This document shows, piece after piece, positions 1 to 9,530 of a stretch of 9,530 bases of DNA. The position numbers and the translations under genes were made by a program. Positions within the stretch are counted from its first letter, which is position 1. Each line of letters opens with the position of its first letter. Under the pieces are notes generated by a model. That model made no database searches, was not told where the DNA came from, and saw only the letters and a list, made by a program, of their open reading frames with translations. Source of the stretch: Geosiphon pyriformis uo1 (Eukaryota > Fungi > Glomeromycota); the NCBI GenBank assembly GCA_016748015.1, contig JAAOMT010000202.1:1-9530 (forward strand). Direction: 5' to 3'.

Positions 1-460
1 CCCCCCCCCCCCCACCCCCCCCCCCCCCCCCCCCCACCCCATCCTATGGGTACTGGGGACCCCTACTCTATGGTGCTCCTTTGTGGGGAGATAAGGGCTA
101 CATTTTTGTCTACTGCCCATAGGCTAGACACCCTACACTATGGGATATGGTTATACTTTTCTATGGGACCTTGGTGGGTATATGGGTCTACCCCCCCCAT
201 CCTATAGGCTCCTATGGGTACTATTGTCCTTGAGGGTCCATCCTGGCCTACGAGGTTGATGGGGTCCCCCTGTGCATATTTGGGGGACTTGGGGTCCCCC
301 CCCCTCAATCTGGATCGGCAATATGGTACTACTTCAGGGCTCAGGTTAGATTGGGGGCCTCTAGACTATATGGTGCTCCTACCACTACTTTAGGGCTAAG
401 TGGATCCAAATACCCTATTGCTCGGGGAGTGTTATTGGGCTCTCAGGATTTGGTGGTCTC
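1..460 (+). repeat. Terminal poly-C tract followed by degenerate low-complexity DNA
   Basis: An interrupted C run at 1-40 and C tracts at 191-198 and 296-304 are present, with CTATGGG and GGTACT words like the other background blocks. Confidence 0.65.
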
Positions 461-756
461 TATGGGTCTCAGGTCTGTTTGCTCTACCCTTACTGAATAT
501 TAGAGGGTTATTTGAGTAATCAAAGACTCTAGTGCCCCTATGGTAACAGGTCCCCTCCATAGGCACTCTTCGGCCAGCATCCCCTCATGAAGGCCTCAGG
601 GCCAATTTTGTCAGTAATACACGATCGCTATGACTATTACCTTCCCAGCCTTCTACGGTTGGAGGCGCCGTATACGGGAGAGTCCGAAGTACTCCTGCTT
701 GCTGAGATTCTCCACTGTATAATCCCCGAGCTGTTGGATTGAACATCTTACCAATA
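461..756 (-). pseudogene. Second mitovirus-like RdRp fragment (motif F to motif A region)
   Basis: The minus strand reads ...LSRIRRLQP*KAGKVIVIAIVYY*Q (KAGK...YY* at 611-652), resembling E.AGKVRVIAIVDYWTQ. The adjacent frame gives TKLALRP, followed by LH at 587-592, resembling Q..L.PLH. RRVPMEGTC (546-572) resembles R.IP.DGTF. YSVRVEQTDLRPI (461-499) resembles YSFDLSAATDRLPI and is in the same frame as the KAGKV motif. The upstream edge is a C10 tract at 757-766. Confidence 0.82.
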
Positions 757-1400
757 CCCCCCCCCCGAATCCAACCTCTTGGGATATGGCTCTGGTTTTA
801 TTGGTACCTTGGGATCCCCCCCACCCCCCCCCCCACCTACCTCTGGGGATCTCTAATGGTACCTCATTTTTGGGGGGTATTTGGTGGTCCTTTTTGTAGG
901 ATTTTTGGTATCCCAAAAGGGGTATCTGGTATCCATCACATCCTATGGTATATGGGCCCTCCATATGGCTCCGGTCTTGGGATCCCACTACATATTGGGT
1001 ATTGGGATACTATGGTGGGATATGGGTACTACCCTATGGTATATGAGGTATAGACGGGTATTGGGATACCACACATACTCTAGGCTCCGATCTAGTGGAT
1101 ATGGGGTGTCTATACGGTTGGGTATATGGGATACTACTAAATGGCTAAATTTTGGATACCCTTGTGGTTTTTGTCTAGGGCTCACATCCTTGTGTAATAT
1201 GGTGTATCCACCCTTGTTTTTGGTAGTATTGGGTGGTACCTCCGGTTGGGGACTTGGTTTTTGTATCTTTGTTGAATTTGTACCTCCTACCCTATGGTTG
1301 CTGCGTATATCCTGTTTGGGTAGTCTTGGCTATATGGTTGGGTATCTGGTACTATTTGGATCCATTGGTGTGGATACTTTGGATCTTATAGGGTACATTT
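757..1400 (+). repeat. Degenerate GGTA(C/T)C-type low-complexity DNA
   Basis: It uses the same word vocabulary as 6400-9530 (GGTACC, GGTATC, CTATGG, TTTTGG), with poly-C tracts at 757-766 and 816-834. Confidence 0.7.
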
Positions 1401-4370
1401 TGCTATGAGGGACCATTGGTGGAGACATGGGATCCACAAGGCTAGGTGGGATCAATAGAGGGATCCTTTGGATCCCCTGGGCTATGGGATCCATTAGGGG
1501 ATACATTTGTGTCCTCAGGGCTCCTCTATGGCTACATGGTAGATCCCCTGGGTGGATCCTTTGGGGTCCATGAGGGGAGATATGAGATAGATGGATCCTC
1601 TAGGATTCCTTGGGTATCTGGGACTATGAGATCCATTAGGGCTATGAGTATACTCTGGGCTGCTAAGGGTTAGATAGGTTAGATGAGATCCACTAGGGAT
1701 ATCTGGCTAGAGGGACTATGGGCTAAAGGGGGATCCACTAGGTTAGATTGGATACTTTGGATCCATTTTGTGGATGGGCTAAATGGGGATCCATTGGATA
1801 CATTGGTGTCCATTTGGTTAAATAGGCTAAAGGGGACTATATGGTTGGATGGGCTATGGGGATCCTATAGGGTGATGGGAAGGATGGGTGGATCCATTGG
1901 GGTTAGAGGGACCATTTGGCTATTAGGAGGATACATGGGTACATTGGGGACTCAATGGCTATTGGGGGATCCTCTAGTGATCCTTTGGTTAGATGGGTAC
2001 TATTAGGAGGATACATGGATCCTTTGGGATAGATGGTTAGAGGGACCCTTGCTCTATAGGGGATGGATGGCTCTAGAGGGTGGGATCTATAGGGAGAGGG
2101 TTAGATAGGGTTGAAGTGGATCCATTAGGGCTAAATGGGCTATTTAGGATCCATTGGTGGGTATCTGGTATAGGTGGTACTCTCTGGGTTCAATCTGGGA
2201 TCCTTGAGGTTTGATGGGATAGATGGCTACAAGGGCTATGAGGGCTATCTGGTATATCTGAGATCCATTAGGGGATCATTTGGATACCTTTGTTTGTCCA
2301 CGGGTTTAATGGGATGGATGTTGCAGATGGGGATCCTTTGGGACCCATTGGGGCAGAGGGCTAAATATGGGATCTATGGGACTATGAGAATACCCTGGGT
2401 CCATGAGGGTCCCTTTTGTAAAGGGCTACATGGTAGAGGTGTGGATGGATCCATTAGGGATCTATTAGGCGAGTGGTCTATGGTGGATATATGGTATCCT
2501 CTATGGGATATATGGGATATAGGTATCTATGGTGATGGATCCTCTGGAGATGGAGAGATATGGCTATTAGGGTTAGATGGAGATATATGGGGATGGTGTA
2601 ATCACTTAGTGGTATATGGATAGATGGTACTATGGTCCTCTATAGGGTCCCTTAGGGTTCTATGGATAGAGGAGATGCTCAATGGGGGATCTATTGGAGG
2701 GTCCATTGGTTTGTCCTCTAGTGGATAGATTGGATATCTGGGGTCCTCTAGAGGTGGGATATCCTCTATGAGGAGAGATGGATGGATACCTTGGGTACAT
2801 GGCTCTCTAGTGCTCAATAGGGTACATTTTGCTCAATAGGGGATCCATTTGGTATAGGTATATCTGAGATCCCCTGTTGGATACTTGGATACTTTGGATA
2901 CTCAATGGTAGAGATGGTTGGGCATGGTACTCTGCTAGGCTCTCTTTGGTCCATGAGGGCTCAATCTGGGACTATGGAGCTAGATGGGATAGATGGTAGA
3001 GATGAGGCTATAGAGGGTAGGATATGGCTATACAGATAAATGGGGATGGATCCCTGGCGGGTCCTCTATTAGATCCTCTAGGATCCTATACGGGCTTCTA
3101 GTGGTCATCGGCTCTACCTTGAGGCTCTGGGATCATTAGTTTTATCACTATGGGTCCATTGGGTGATCCTCAATGGGATCTAGGGATCCAACGGGACCCT
3201 GAGGGCTCTCTACTAGTGACCATTAGTGCTCCATATAGCTAAAGTTTGATATATGAGATCCACTAGGGACTCAGGGTTAAGGGGCTCCTGGGACTAGAGG
3301 TGTTAGAGGGACCATGAGGATCCATGAGGGCTAAAGTGCTCAATATGGAATCCTCTAGGGGTTAGGTAAGATGGATGGTATCTATAAGGGTTCAATAGGG
3401 CTCTAGTAGGCTAAATGGGCTATTTAGGGCTATGGGGATACACAGGTGTTGATATATTAGATCCACTATGGGGATGGATGGGCTACAGAGGGATCCCTTT
3501 GTATGGATGGCTATATGGTGATCCATCTGAGTTGGATGGTATCCTCTAGGGTATATGGGATCCATGGGTACCTTTTTAGACTTTGGATCACTTAGGGGAC
3601 TATGGCTCCTATCTAGTGGATGGGATCCTTTTGATCTATGGAGAGAGATGGCTCTATTTTGCTCAATATGGGGATCCACTAAGGTTTGATCTAGGAGGCT
3701 GACTATACTAGTATCCTCTAGTTATCCTATGGGGGACTAGATGGGCTACAATTGAGCTCAATGGGTAGAGATTAGATACTTTGGATATACTGGAGGATCC
3801 TTTTGATCACTATGGTGGATGGATGGGTTATATGGCTCAATAGGGACTATCTGGATACTTTGGATCCTTTGGGGCTAAATGGGCAGATGGGGGATCCTCG
3901 TATACTTTGGGTCCATTATGGGATCCCTTAGGTACTCAATGGTGGTTATATATTAGATCCACTTTGTTGGATGGTGGGATCTATTGGGTACATTGGGGGA
4001 TAAATGGCTCCATGTGATACACTGTGGTTGGATCTATTAGGGACGAGGGTTGGCTATGGGGATACTTTGGATCCATGGGCTATTTGGGATACTCTTGATC
4101 TATAGGGTCCTATTGGGCTATGGGACTATGAGATCCACTGGGTAGATGGTGGCATATTGGATCCCCTAGGCTATATGGGATATAGGGTATAGGCTCTATG
4201 GATGGATCCTCTAGTGATCCTTTGGGAGAGGGGGATCCTTTGGATCCTATGGGGACGGTTGGATGGATGGGTAGTGATGGGATCCGCAGGGCTATGGGAT
4301 ATAGGATACTTTGGATACATTAGGCTATCTTTTTGTTTATGTAAACATCTAAACCCTCTGTATGGATCCC
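1400..4370 (+). repeat. Degenerate GGATCC-rich low-complexity repeat domain
   Basis: A manual count gives roughly 35-40 GGATCC sites in about 3 kb and only about one GGTACC. Longer words recur: GGATACTTTGGAT (near 1372, 1750, 2888, 3854, 4060, 4304), GGCTAAATGGG (near 1777, 2129, 3409, 3873) and AGATCCACT (near 1686, 3256, 3459, 3955, 4131). No fixed period is visible. Confidence 0.85.
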
Positions 4371-4778
4371 TCACTTACCTGCTCCCATTATCGGGTATCT
4401 TGGCATATGGGATACCTCTTTGGGGTGTAGGAGAGGGGATATTTGGTTTTGAGATAGTTGGTTTGTATACCCCCCAATCCCGCATCACCCCCCCCCCAGG
4501 ATCCCCAACCCCTATACCCTTGTGCCCTGGTGTGGTATGGGCTACTTAAGGTTGATCCTGGGTCCAATGGGGATGGAATCATATTGATCCTCTCATTGGA
4601 TCTTTTGCTTTTGGATTGGGTTTGTACCCACGGGGTAGTCATTGGTGCTCTACTTTGTGCATCTAATGTTTGTGCCTATAAGTCTATTTTTGGGTATCAC
4701 AATCACTCTTGCTACTCTTGTAGTGGGATCTTGTTGGACCCACAAATGTTGGTAGATCCGGTGTGATACCCCCCCCCC

Positions 4779-4834
4779 CCGCAAGGCCGGGCCGAGGCCC
4801 CGTAGGCAGGGCCGTAGGCCAGGGGCCGGAGGCC
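4779..4834. repeat. GC cluster: array of short palindromic mini-hairpins
   Basis: CC-GCAA-GG (4779-4786), GGCC-GA-GGCC (4790-4799), CC-GTA-GG (4800-4806), GGCC-GTA-GGCC (4810-4820) and GGCC-GGA-GGCC (4824-4834) follow directly after a C12 tract (4769-4780). Confidence 0.8.
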
Positions 4835-4862
4835 ACCAACTCCCTCTGAAACACTTGTAAAC

Positions 4863-4925
4863 GGGGTCCTCCCTGGGGGAAGTGGGGGGCCCCAACCCCC
4901 CCCTTAGAGGGTAATCCGGGACCCT
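4863..4925. other. Potential multibranched stem-loop
   Basis: An outer inverted repeat GGGTCC (4864-4869) / GGACCC (4919-4924) encloses TCCC-TGG-GGGA, GGGGGG..CCCCCC and CCCT-TAG-AGGG pairings. Confidence 0.45.
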
Positions 4926-4929
4926 GGGC

Positions 4930-5159
4930 TCGTATCCCTTTCTCCACCTTTTGGCGGAGGACCCTCTGCCCTCAGTCAGTAGTATACAGGCGTGGGTACT
5001 TTGGCCCCATTTTTCTCGGGACCTTTTAACCCCTGGGGTCGCGGACCAATGCTCTATTTTAAGGGACGACCCATGGCAGGTCCTCAGAAGATGAGTTGTA
5101 CCACCAATGAGTAGTCATGGCCGGCCTCCTTGTCAAGGACCCCCCCCTTGTAGGCCTAC
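4930..5159 (-). other. Probable C-terminal or 3' portion of the endogenised viral sequence
   Basis: It has the same non-background composition and is contiguous with and downstream of motif D on the minus strand. No recognisable motif was found. Confidence 0.35.
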
Positions 5160-6012
5160 CTATTAAGAGTGGATAGCAAACCTTATTGGATTTATCTCCA
5201 CACCAACAGCTCGCCTTACCCAGGGTCCTATTAGGTTGGGGCGGGGACCCCCGAGAAGTATGAGTAGAGGGTCTACTACCTTATTAGTGAATGGCCCCCA
5301 CGCAAAAATGGCCTCCTTGAAGCTGGGTATACTTCCCTCTCTCCCTCCAAGGCCGGCCGCCCTCTGGAACCCTTCCTATCTGTGTCCGACTTTGAGGATA
5401 TTGGGATACCTAATTCTTCCATAAGGGCCAAATCATCTTTAGCTACTCTTTATGAGCAAATAACCACCAAATCCTCTCCTAGTACCCGGTAGTCGGCCAC
5501 AACTACCATGAGAGGGGGTTTATGCTTATTCGAGTACCATACCCTCGCTTGTAGAAATGCCCGGTACCGCTTGCCACTGGACCAGGCGGGCACAGGGAGT
5601 CTGGCGAATGATTCTAGTTGCACCCATTGGGGCCTTGGAGAGTACTTTACCACCTACGAGTCCTTTAACCTTGTTACCTGCCGTAAGACTTGGACGGTCC
5701 TATCCCACCATAGGGACCACGGGACCAATACCCTTAGTAGACCCCCCCCTTATTACTCTCTCTCTACATGATTAGGCGCAATACCAACTTACTTGCCTCC
5801 TCCCCAATATTGAACCCATAAGATACTCCCCCAAAAGGAAGTGATAGTACCTATTGCCGCTTAAATAGAAAAGCAGGCCAAATACACATTAGATTACCCC
5901 ACCTTATGAGTATTGGTGGTATTTGGCAGATATGTGGTCTCAGGGTCGGTTGGCTATACCCTTCCTGAATATAAGAGGGTTCCATTTGAGTTATCAAAGA
6001 CTATAGTGCCCC
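5160..6012 (-). pseudogene. Decayed mitovirus-like RNA-dependent RNA polymerase core (endogenous non-retroviral RNA virus element), motifs A-D region
   Basis: Manual minus-strand translation gives these segments in the correct order. A motif-A-like YS..TD/LRP lies at about 5935-5971. VKYS then PMGA (5619-5630) and, in frame with it, LVQW (5574-5585) resemble V.Y..GQPMGALSSW......HH..VQW. DYRVLGEDLVVI (5459-5494) resembles .Y.VLGDDIVI. After a TAA at 5450-5452, RVAKDDLALMEELGIPISSKS (5387-5449) resembles VA..YL.LM..LGV.IS..KS. After a further frameshift comes GSIPSFKE, similar to SPIPFKE. Stops, frameshifts and GDD->GED indicate a pseudogene. The consensus motifs are recalled from mitovirus RdRps and no search was run. 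Confidence 0.88.
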
Positions 6013-6018
6013 CCCCCC

Positions 6019-6400
6019 TTTGTGCCAGTAGTCGAGTACCTGACAAACTTGCGATTACTGTGCCCAATTTACTGCCACAAAGCAGTATCCTCACTCCCTA
6101 CAGGGACATTGGGGCCGATACCCTGTGAGCCCTGCCAATCCTACGGTCCCTCAAGAGTCGGAATCTTAGCTTACTAGTATACGCCCCCCCCCAGGAGGCT
6201 AATAACAACTCTACCAATACTAGGTCTGGTCGTGCTGCTTCAATGTAATAGCAGGCAAAGTTAGTTTCAGTGTAAGCCCCCCTTCTGCTGACTGGAGTAG
6301 CCGAGGCGGAGATAGGTACTCCACAGTAGGTGCTGACTCTAAGTATGGGTACATAATAGGCTACAAAATAAAGCTATTCCTTACTCAAGTGCCCCTAGTG
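6019..6400 (-). pseudogene. Probable N-terminal part of the same viral RdRp element (poorly conserved)
   Basis: This is non-repetitive, CpG-containing sequence contiguous with the RdRp core and positioned where the N-terminal domain would be. Protein cues are weak (TYCGVP, RVVISLL, STTGTKG) and scattered over frames with many stops. Confidence 0.4.
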
Positions 6401-6471
6401 CTCTATACGGTTGGCCCCCTACCCTATGGGATATGGGTATTCCAATAGGGGTATATGGGTATATGGTGATA

Positions 6472-6768
6472 CCTCTCCATCTGGGAATTTGGTACTATAC
6501 TCTGGGATCTGGTATTGGGCTCTATGGGTCTCCCAATCATCTGGGATCCTTGGTATAGAAATTGGGGATTTGGGTACCTTTTGGGACCACCAGCTAATGG
6601 TTGCTACCGGGTCTATTTTTGTATACCACACCACCTATGGCTATACCCTTTGTGGTAGTATTTTGGGATATATGGGTATCGTGGAATACTACTCTACTCT
6701 AGGCTACTCATGATACCCCCTTAATAGGCTCCCATTGCCAAATATTGGGTATGGGTACCCCCCCCCCC
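6472..6768 (+). repeat. 297-bp exact direct repeat, copy 1 (left of gap)
   Basis: It appears identical to 6963-7259 at an offset of 491, starting CCTCTCCATCTGGGAA and ending GGGTA-C11. The duplicated ORF translations agree. Confidence 0.95.
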
Positions 6769-6962
6769 NNNNNNNNNNNNNNNNNNNNNNNNNNNNNNNN
6801 NNNNNNNNNNNNNNNNNNNNNNNNNNNNNNNNNNNNNNNNNNNNNNNNNNNNNNNNNNNNNNNNNNNNNNNNNNNNNNNNNNNNNNNNNNNNNNNNNNNN
6901 NNNNNNNNNNNNNNNNNNNNNNNNNNNNNNNNNNNNNNNNNNNNNNNNNNNNNNNNNNNNNN
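6769..6962. other. Assembly gap (194 N)
   Basis: A run of N begins immediately after a poly-C tract. Confidence 0.99.
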
Positions 6963-7259
6963 CCTCTCCATCTGGGAATTTGGTACTATACTCTGGGATC
7001 TGGTATTGGGCTCTATGGGTCTCCCAATCATCTGGGATCCTTGGTATAGAAATTGGGGATTTGGGTACCTTTTGGGACCACCAGCTAATGGTTGCTACCG
7101 GGTCTATTTTTGTATACCACACCACCTATGGCTATACCCTTTGTGGTAGTATTTTGGGATATATGGGTATCGTGGAATACTACTCTACTCTAGGCTACTC
7201 ATGATACCCCCTTAATAGGCTCCCATTGCCAAATATTGGGTATGGGTACCCCCCCCCCC
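6963..7259 (+). repeat. 297-bp exact direct repeat, copy 2 (right of gap)
   Basis: It appears identical to 6472-6768 and begins exactly at the end of the N run. Confidence 0.95.
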
Positions 7260-9530
7260 GCTTAAGGGCGCCCTACCCTTTGGGATATGGGTACCCTTTT
7301 TGTGGAGGTATTTGGTGGTAGGATTTGGGTAGTAGGGATCCCATCCTATGGACTCTTTTGGTGGAGTGATTGGGCTCATAGGGGAGACTGGGTACTGGTA
7401 GATTGTGGACCACTCAATATGGTGATAGGGTAGAAACCTATGGGCTCCATTTTGGTATTGGATCTACGGTTGGTAGTACTTTGGGTACTTTAGGGATTTT
7501 GTTTGACCCTCTAGGGCTACATTGGGTTGGTATATTTGGTGGATCTCTTATGGGTCTTTGGTTTTGGGATTATTTTGGTCTATTTGGGTCCACTACACTA
7601 TGGGCCAATAGGGTATTCGGGTATATAGGGGTTGGGACCTATATACTACTATGGTTGCTCCTCCACCCTAATAGGGCTAGACTGGGTATATTTGGTTGGT
7701 ACCTACGGTGTAGGAATTGGGCATCTTTTGTGGTACCTCTTATGGTTGGTATCCTATGGGTATATAGGTAGTGTTGGGGCTCTTTTTGGGTAGGTTTGGG
7801 GGTATCTTGGGGGATATTTGGTGGTATCCTATTTGGTTGTAGTCTTTGGGGCCACTACCCTATGGGCGATAGGGGTATACTGGGTATCTCTAATCTGTAA
7901 TACTTGGTGGTATAGATTGGGGCTCCTCCCACATATGGATATGGTATCTTTTGGGCAAGTCAATCTCAATCTTTTGGGTACTTTGGGTATCTCCCACCCT
8001 ATGGGATCTGGTACTGGGCAAGATTTTTGGTACCACTCTACTTTGGGATATGGGTATATTTGGGGAGATTTTGGGATACCCTAAATGGTGCCGAGGGGTC
8101 TATGGGACACTACTACACATCCTTGGCTATAAGGGTCTTTTGGGTACCACCAGCTAGGGCTCATATGGGATTTTTTGTATACCACTACTCTACTCTATGG
8201 TGCTCCTACACTATAGGCTAGTGGACTTTTGGGTAGATATTGGTACCACACATATGGCCATCCTAGAGGCTCTACAGGGATTGGGCTCATACCTTTTGGA
8301 TCTTGGGATACCCCCCCCCCTACCCTATGGTGAAAACCTTTTGTTGGTAGATGGGTATCTATACTCTGTACTCCCATACTATGGGTAGAGACTCTTTGGA
8401 GATTTTTGTGGATTCGGGTATCCTACATCTTGGTTTGTATGGGGTATTTGGTTGGACCCTAAATGGGATAGGAGGTCCACTACTTCTGGGCTACTCATGG
8501 ATCTATTGGGGAGATTGGGTAGAGTGGGGGTCCTTTGGGGATTTGGGTATCTAGATGGTGGATACTCCATATGGGCAAATTTGGGTATCATATGGGTGTA
8601 TTTGGTAGTACCCCCCCCCAGCTCATCCTCTGGTATATGGTATTGGGCTACCTGGTTGGGGGGGCCCCGCTGACTTGGCTCCGGCTCTGTATATTTTGGG
8701 ATACCACCCCCCTATGCTTGGTATTTGGTACCACTGCCATATGGTTGCTCAGCTCGGTGGTAGATTTTGGGGGGGATGGTTGGTACCTTATCCTATTGGG
8801 CTCAGCTCTTGGGTATATACTCAGGGTAGCATTTTGTGGACCACCTATCCTATGGGCTACATTGGTGGTGGTATATGGTGTATGTGGTACTACCCTATGA
8901 GATATGGTATCCTCTAATGTTTCTATTTGCTTACTATACTATGGGCTACATTGGCATCGGTGGTATATAGTAGATACCCATACTATGGGCTCTATGGGAA
9001 TATTTGGTACACTACTCTCTGGTTACCTATAGGGGAGGAGAGGTGGATCCTACTACCCATGGTGGTAGTGATATAGGCTACGCGTATAACTGGGTATTTT
9101 GTGGTATCCTCTTTTGTAATACTTGTAAACATCTTTGTGTGGAGAGTGGGGATACGGGTCCCTCCAACTACTTTATGGCTCCTTTGGGTACCACTCAATC
9201 TGGGCTACGTGAGATTGGTAGACTTGGTTGGTATCACTAGACTATGGGTACTGGGTATCTCCGTTTGTACCATCCTCTGGGTCCTTTGGGATACCACCAA
9301 ATAGGCTACGGGGAGTCATTGGTATATCCTGTTTGGTATCTTTTGGGTTGGAGGGGTAGGGATTTGGCTACCTTTTTGTATCTTTGTGGATACCCAATAT
9401 ATGGGATATGGCTACTTGCTCTTTGGTACCCTATCTGGGATAGGTATACTCCCCCTGGCCTCCTCAGTGGTATATAGGGTTGGTATTTGGTAGATAGGGA
9501 CCACTCATACGGTTTGGTACCCCCCCCCCC

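Follow-up and report, generated by a model that had tools for sequence, protein, structure and literature searches.

The window, i.e., the whole stretch of 9,530 nucleotides (nt) that was analyzed, consists largely of degenerate 9-10-nt repeats of a GGATCC/GGATAC/GGTACC family (780-4750 and 6400-9530), whose plus strand is rich in G and almost devoid of CpG. With a Markov model built from flank sequence, two compositionally atypical islands were delimited, at about 480-760 and 4780-6400. An inverted repeat lies at 727-756/5184-5213. The features of the window are as follows:

1-9530: carrier molecule, circular-mapping and about 9.03 kb long, dominated by degenerate G-rich repeats of 9-10 nt and also carrying tracts of poly-C (contigs of sequencing run X1)
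450-538: duplicated block, first copy (self-alignment)
549-652, minus strand: probable second remnant, with motif F and a DGT-like box ordered as in the references (profile, shuffles)
4781-6400: non-repetitive island, about 1.1 kb of it without assignable origin (Markov-model contrast)
5279-5740, minus strand: main mitovirus RdRp remnant, a stretch preceding motif B, then B, C, D and the post-E region, with several frameshifts and stops
5298-5369, minus strand: region of motif E and beyond, read in a third phase (alignment with references L044 and P0012)
5387-5494, minus strand: motifs C-D, triad GED, stop at 5452-5450 (match to PF05919, shuffles)
5574-5630, minus strand: motif B remnant PMGA ... 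LVQW, broken by indels (read from the sequence)
5913-6012: duplicated block, other copy (self-alignment)
6254-6413, minus strand: possible third C-D-E remnant, more decayed, YRALG ... GVPIS ... FA with motif-like spacing (shuffles)
6759-7248: scaffolding artefact, a gap of N plus a repeated 297-nt copy (X1 contig, identical repeat)

Within the main remnant, PMGA (5630-5619) and LVQW (5585-5574) share one frame of the minus strand, and DYRVLGEDLVVI (5494-5459) and VAK..LALMEELGIPISSKS (5446-5387) lie in another, separated from each other by the stop at 5452-5450. The tryptophan codon in LVQW and in VWY is TGG. The motif remnants B, C and D of the original prediction were recovered in the same order at 5630-5387, and motif E extends the collinear series, B and E being weak when taken singly (18 of 500 shuffles at the expected place for motif B and 24 of 500 for the post-E region). 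No single intact open reading frame (ORF), such as a living mitovirus carries on its RNA of 2-4 kb, runs through the remnant, and the catalytic triad of motif C reads GED in place of GDD; the triad, the stops and the frameshifts agree with the earlier view of a non-working polymerase. No signal of motif A was detected at the three places tested (142, 243 and 435 of 500 shuffles) or across 5700-6420 (164 of 300 shuffles), and candidates picked by eye near 5820, 5975 and 500 were dropped after shuffle scoring. The C-terminal part of the RdRp gave no score above chance (76 of 300 shuffles equally high).

Regarding the family, the best Pfam match of the 47-residue C-D fragment (X at the stop) was Mitovir_RNA_pol (PF05919), with an E-value of 4.8e-4 and 19.7 bits, which falls short of the curated cut-off of 25 bits; the sole other match was HTH_11 (E 0.12). 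Reverse transcriptase (RT) families were absent for this fragment at E up to 10 and absent from the other frames scanned, and no better match to a cellular protein appeared. Three of 12 stop read-throughs matched Pfam, every one at the C-D stretch; 27 further tiles gave no match, and neither did any of the 10 stop-free frames, so that the ORF track is blind to the remnant, as had been stated. Since searches of databases with the fragment gave nothing (15 candidates but none at E up to 10; no match among 1.84 billion representatives), reference RdRps were gathered from IMG/VR by motif patterns and supplemented with 120 relatives of L044. All patterns except the 'GQPLG' set, which was derived from the window, follow known motifs. 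Three of three collected references checked were members of PF05919.

A general profile of 78 mitovirus-like RdRps aligned to 5740-5279 with 57.0 bits when frameshifts were allowed (profile positions 332-478), compared with maxima of 31.6 for 60 shuffles and 34.7 for 28 flank tile-strands. The C-D stretch alone scored 47.0 bits, a value reached by none of 300 shuffles (top shuffle 19.0), and stood out in hmmsearch among 474 six-frame tiles (iE 8e-08). Sister profiles on the same stretch scored far lower than the mitovirus profile (47.1 bits), namely 15.4 bits for narna-like (41 sequences) and 13.1 bits for ourmia-like RdRps (45/53 sequences), these labels resting on the motifs used to collect the sequences. 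With 113 reference RdRps as tblastn queries, 29 of 49 rows fell inside 5279-5740. A profile of the L044 clade (120 relatives) brought no gain in sensitivity over the general one, and the score of 48.6 obtained on the main remnant with the 'GQPLG' profile was given no weight because of the origin of that pattern. The best identity of the remnant to any reference was 47% over 68 columns. The viral origin of 5740-5279 is secure at the level of the mitovirus family, and the assignment to Mitoviridae made from the letters alone holds, with collinear mitovirus matches at 5387-5650.

The claim that the region represents much of a viral genome did not survive. About 460 nt of the 1470 nt in question align, motif A is undetectable, and PMG and the catalytic triad stand about 50 codons apart, compared with 35-44 in the references (5th-95th percentile, n=110); this is an excess and no deletion, contrary to the supposed missing internal piece. 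Nor does the island reach far enough from the triad in either direction for a near-whole genome, since its edges lie about 700 nt (3') and 930 nt (5') away, whereas the distances are 1050-2280 nt (3') and 1290-2385 nt (5') in 31 reference contigs with a length of 2.6 kb or more. The region is a patchwork of short remnants. The period-3 signal of the island is weak (10 of 500). Its end at 4781-4935 is GC-rich and bears a 14-nt tandem repeat (4800-4835); as a viral 3' stem-loop this end was rejected, since it folds no better than shuffles (z -0.18 to 0.70, 5/5 folds). C runs of at least 6 number seven in the island and four and five in the flanks, with identical strand, and these same-strand runs, together with the stops and frameshifts, argue for a long residence of the viral sequence in the molecule.

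A second mitovirus remnant is probable at 652-549, outside the interval of the original prediction. It reached 25.4 bits with the general profile (0 of 300 shuffles) and 19.6 with the L044-clade profile (2 of 150 shuffles higher), the score of the DGT-like box by itself being reached by 20 of 500 shuffles; under loose gap costs one Trp-rich flank tile of 28 beats it (34.7 vs 28.0), and Pfam gave no match. At the conserved tryptophan of motif F it carries TGA, as do 11 of 48 references, which may be taken as only a hint, from one codon, of a host reading UGA as tryptophan. The putative third remnant (6254-6413) was equalled by 1 of 300 and 2 of 500 shuffles, both chosen after looking; it has no Pfam match, and its DNA does not resemble that of the main copy (293 of 500 shuffles). 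Statistical support for the second and third remnants is modest. The duplicated block is seen directly, with a pair score of 115 versus a maximum of 45 in 500 shuffles, 80 of 89 paired bases identical and all nine differences transversions. There is one copy per island, and the copy at 538-450 adjoins the second remnant.

DNA-level support comes from a single run, X1, from which the window itself may derive and which is only guessed to be a DNA run. One X1 contig of 3023 nt spans 3883-6470 and crosses both edges of the island, in line with the earlier claim of residence in assembled DNA, although this contiguity with the flanks is not independent evidence, given that X1 may be the source and its DNA status is guessed. 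Mean depth is 102.6 for this contig and 92.1 and 97.7 for the flank contigs (per-contig means, no copy numbers). A contig of 5057 nt (depth 92.1) covers 7403-9500 and 200-2941 and so bridges the end of the window to its start; the two matches, being equal in length and depth, are taken as one contig. From its coordinates, the poly-C ends overlap by 13 nt and the circle measures about 9027 nt. Since the 3023-nt contig joins 6758 to 7249, the gap of N and the repeated 297-nt copy are an artefact. The window therefore maps as a circle, and a head-to-tail tandem array would map alike.

Among public sequencing runs, X1 was the sole one with the stretch, and none of RNA type was among the matches listed; run X2 held a single 160-nt piece (324-464), which was given no weight, and run X3 nothing matching the window. 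Further X1 contigs of 2.3-5.2 kb and depth 100-164 contact the circle via short common stretches (among the matches listed), located at 2912-2992, 3852-3945 and 7357-7486, which suggests a family of related molecules. No gene was found on the carrier (with Pfam applied to the islands), nor any Rfam family, tRNA, replication protein (in the Pfam frames scanned) or match to plasmid records. A search of metagenome contigs for the flank motifs yielded no matches, and a second one 117, none of them in the style of the flanks. Perfect 9-nt tandem arrays resembling the window repeat occur in two AT-rich metagenome contigs (L234, about 4000-4300; L253, about 200-400) and are probably unrelated to it.

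The plus strand of the window has 17 C runs of at least 7 versus two such G runs (with one more as an artefact duplicate and one across the ends). In 13 self-alignments, the duplicated block included, 38 of 45 differences were transversions, and all seven differing letters between X1 and the window (among the matches listed) were A<->C or G<->T; A<->C/G<->T changes thus seem to dominate mutation across the whole molecule. RIP and methylation decay produce transitions, and the near-absence of these argues against both. A mutation spectrum resembling this transversion pattern is described for Arabidopsis mitochondrial DNA (mtDNA; PMC7056966), but spectra vary among seed-plant mtDNAs, and that of Ginkgo, with 204 transitions and 89 transversions, is unlike the one seen here (PMC9222611).

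Regarding the lineage, the signatures PMG (motif B) and AGKV (motif F) fit non-plant references better. A plant-type profile gave 35.1 bits for the main and 14.7 bits for the second remnant, compared with 47.1 and 24.9; it was built from 16 sequences, Chenopodium quinoa mitovirus 1 (L285) among them, after the plant-type loci L290, L297 and L301 had been dropped for cut or broken frames. The named relatives of L044 are Rhizoctonia and Exserohilum mitoviruses. Two trees, a quick one of 166 rows (32 of the 120 P proteins) and one of 37 rows, placed the remnant on a very long branch outside the plant group, at differing spots and without starred support; forcing it into the plant clade of Duamitovirus was not rejected in the 37-row tree (p-AU 0.55). 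The remnant is too decayed to be dated or placed.

With the RdRp of Mitoviridae (PF05919, relatives of L044) the remnants share motifs F, B, C, D and E, both in content and in order, whereas the window has no open frame, an altered triad and an undetectable motif A, and lies in DNA; the element is a fossil and no virus. Mitovirus fossils are catalogued in plant mitochondria (PMC4393810). Like the window, these are partial DNA copies of the RdRp, from near-complete to barely detectable, with several per genome and no RT of their own; the window is far more decayed than their long-ORF examples and differs in its carrier, a small low-complexity circle. As in the definition of mitovirus NERVEs, the viral sequence is contiguous with host DNA (X1 contig, 3883-6470; one run, possibly the source). 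A 10-kb IMG/VR 'viral' contig (L300, 1-4263) with a short plant-type mitovirus frame (235 aa) may be plant organelle DNA with a fossil.

Low-complexity G-rich repeat DNA is unlike typical flowering-plant mtDNA. 'Empty' chromosomes are known from Rhopalocnemis (4-8 kb), Ombrophytum (4.9-27 kb) and Silene noctiflora (PMC10476698). With such multichromosomal or minicircular mitogenomes the carrier shares being a small, circular-mapping, gene-free molecule tied by short repeats to others in the assembly, whereas it has no long common conserved region (among the matches listed). Mitovirus DNA of Gigaspora margarita (PMC7082362) is likewise a DNA form of a mitovirus, in that case outside plants; it matches viruses in the isolate, whereas that of the window is old, broken and set amid host-type repeats. 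In one survey, 637 of 640 mito-like proteins from DNA sources came from plants (PMC12548735), and a 2023 paper notes that mitovirus endogenization outside plants lacks concrete evidence (PMC9965874). In the literature searched, with partial coverage, no integrated mitovirus was described from the mtDNA of fungi or from a minicircle devoid of genes. New here are the second remnant, the possible third, the duplicated block and the circular map.

The preferred reading, to which a probability of about 0.62 is assigned, is that decayed non-coding mitovirus RdRp remnants lie on a gene-free circle of about 9.03 kb, and that this circle likely belongs to a multipartite mitochondrial genome as one of its chromosomes or subgenomic circles. 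Mitochondria are the habitat of mitoviruses, and fossils in mtDNA are documented (PMC4393810). The compartment itself we infer, as no mitochondrial gene, tRNA or RNA family was found on the molecule. An unlikely reading, though the one most seriously to be weighed against it, keeps the remnants mitoviral and puts the carrier in the nucleus, be it as one 9-kb unit of a tandem repeat, as an extrachromosomal circle or as mtDNA moved there. The degenerate 9-10-nt repeats resemble old satellite DNA, organelle genes were absent from the molecule in the searches, tandem arrays give a circular map as well, and fossil copies in nuclei are known (PMC4393810); the scarcity of transitions (0 of 9 and 7 of 45) and the several multi-kb contigs of similar style and unequal depth (among the matches listed) speak against it. 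Improbable, by comparison, is a minicircle that picked up viral cDNA and is either autonomous and plasmid-like or native to an organelle other than the mitochondrion (e.g. the plastid). Its size, circular map and lack of genes would fit, as would the non-integrated mitovirus DNA fragments of G. margarita (PMC7082362), but no replication protein and no plasmid record was matched, short repeats are common to several other contigs (among the matches listed), and the heavy decay is at odds with a fresh episomal cDNA.

Two further readings are very improbable. Retention of the remnants as a template for antiviral RNA would account for two to three remnants on one strand of one small molecule, and a mitochondrial fossil of Arabidopsis is transcribed (PMC4393810); no long frame is preserved, and with a best identity of 47% pairing-based silencing of viruses of the sampled type is disfavored as too low in similarity. 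That the match stems from a decayed RT, from some other RdRp family, from chance or from a chimeric assembly is largely refuted: PF05919 is a known source of RT false positives (PMC12548735) and the score stays under the Pfam cut-off, but RT is absent at E up to 10, the narna-like and ourmia-like profiles remain far below that of mitoviruses, motifs B, C, D and E stand in order, and one X1 contig crosses both edges.

Under the preferred mitochondrial reading, a mitovirus RNA replicating in the mitochondrion would have been copied by an RT encoded elsewhere, possibly by a group II intron, a retroplasmid or a retrotransposon, and fragments of the cDNA may then have been captured during repair of DNA breaks, either once, with duplication and rearrangement afterwards, or on two to three occasions. 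The remnants would since have drifted neutrally by A<->C/G<->T transversions and slippage in C runs. Most likely they do nothing now and record a past infection.

The element is of a known kind in an unusual setting. The mitovirus fossil is real, though small and heavily decayed, and as a plain fossil it adds one case to hundreds from plants. The finding matters more if the host is no land plant, since the literature searched contains little on endogenized mitoviruses from hosts other than plants. The carrier, a gene-free, low-complexity 9-kb circle with companions of unequal depth and an almost pure transversion spectrum, is possibly the more valuable lead. Tentatively, and with the odds against it, the host may be a non-plant eukaryote (fungus or protist) that reads UGA as tryptophan and whose mitogenome consists of many small low-complexity circles, some of them gene-free, which repeatedly captured cDNA of non-plant-type mitoviruses. 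If true, this would combine an unusual mitogenome architecture with mitovirus endogenization outside plants, and the circles would constitute an archive of RNA-virus fossils.
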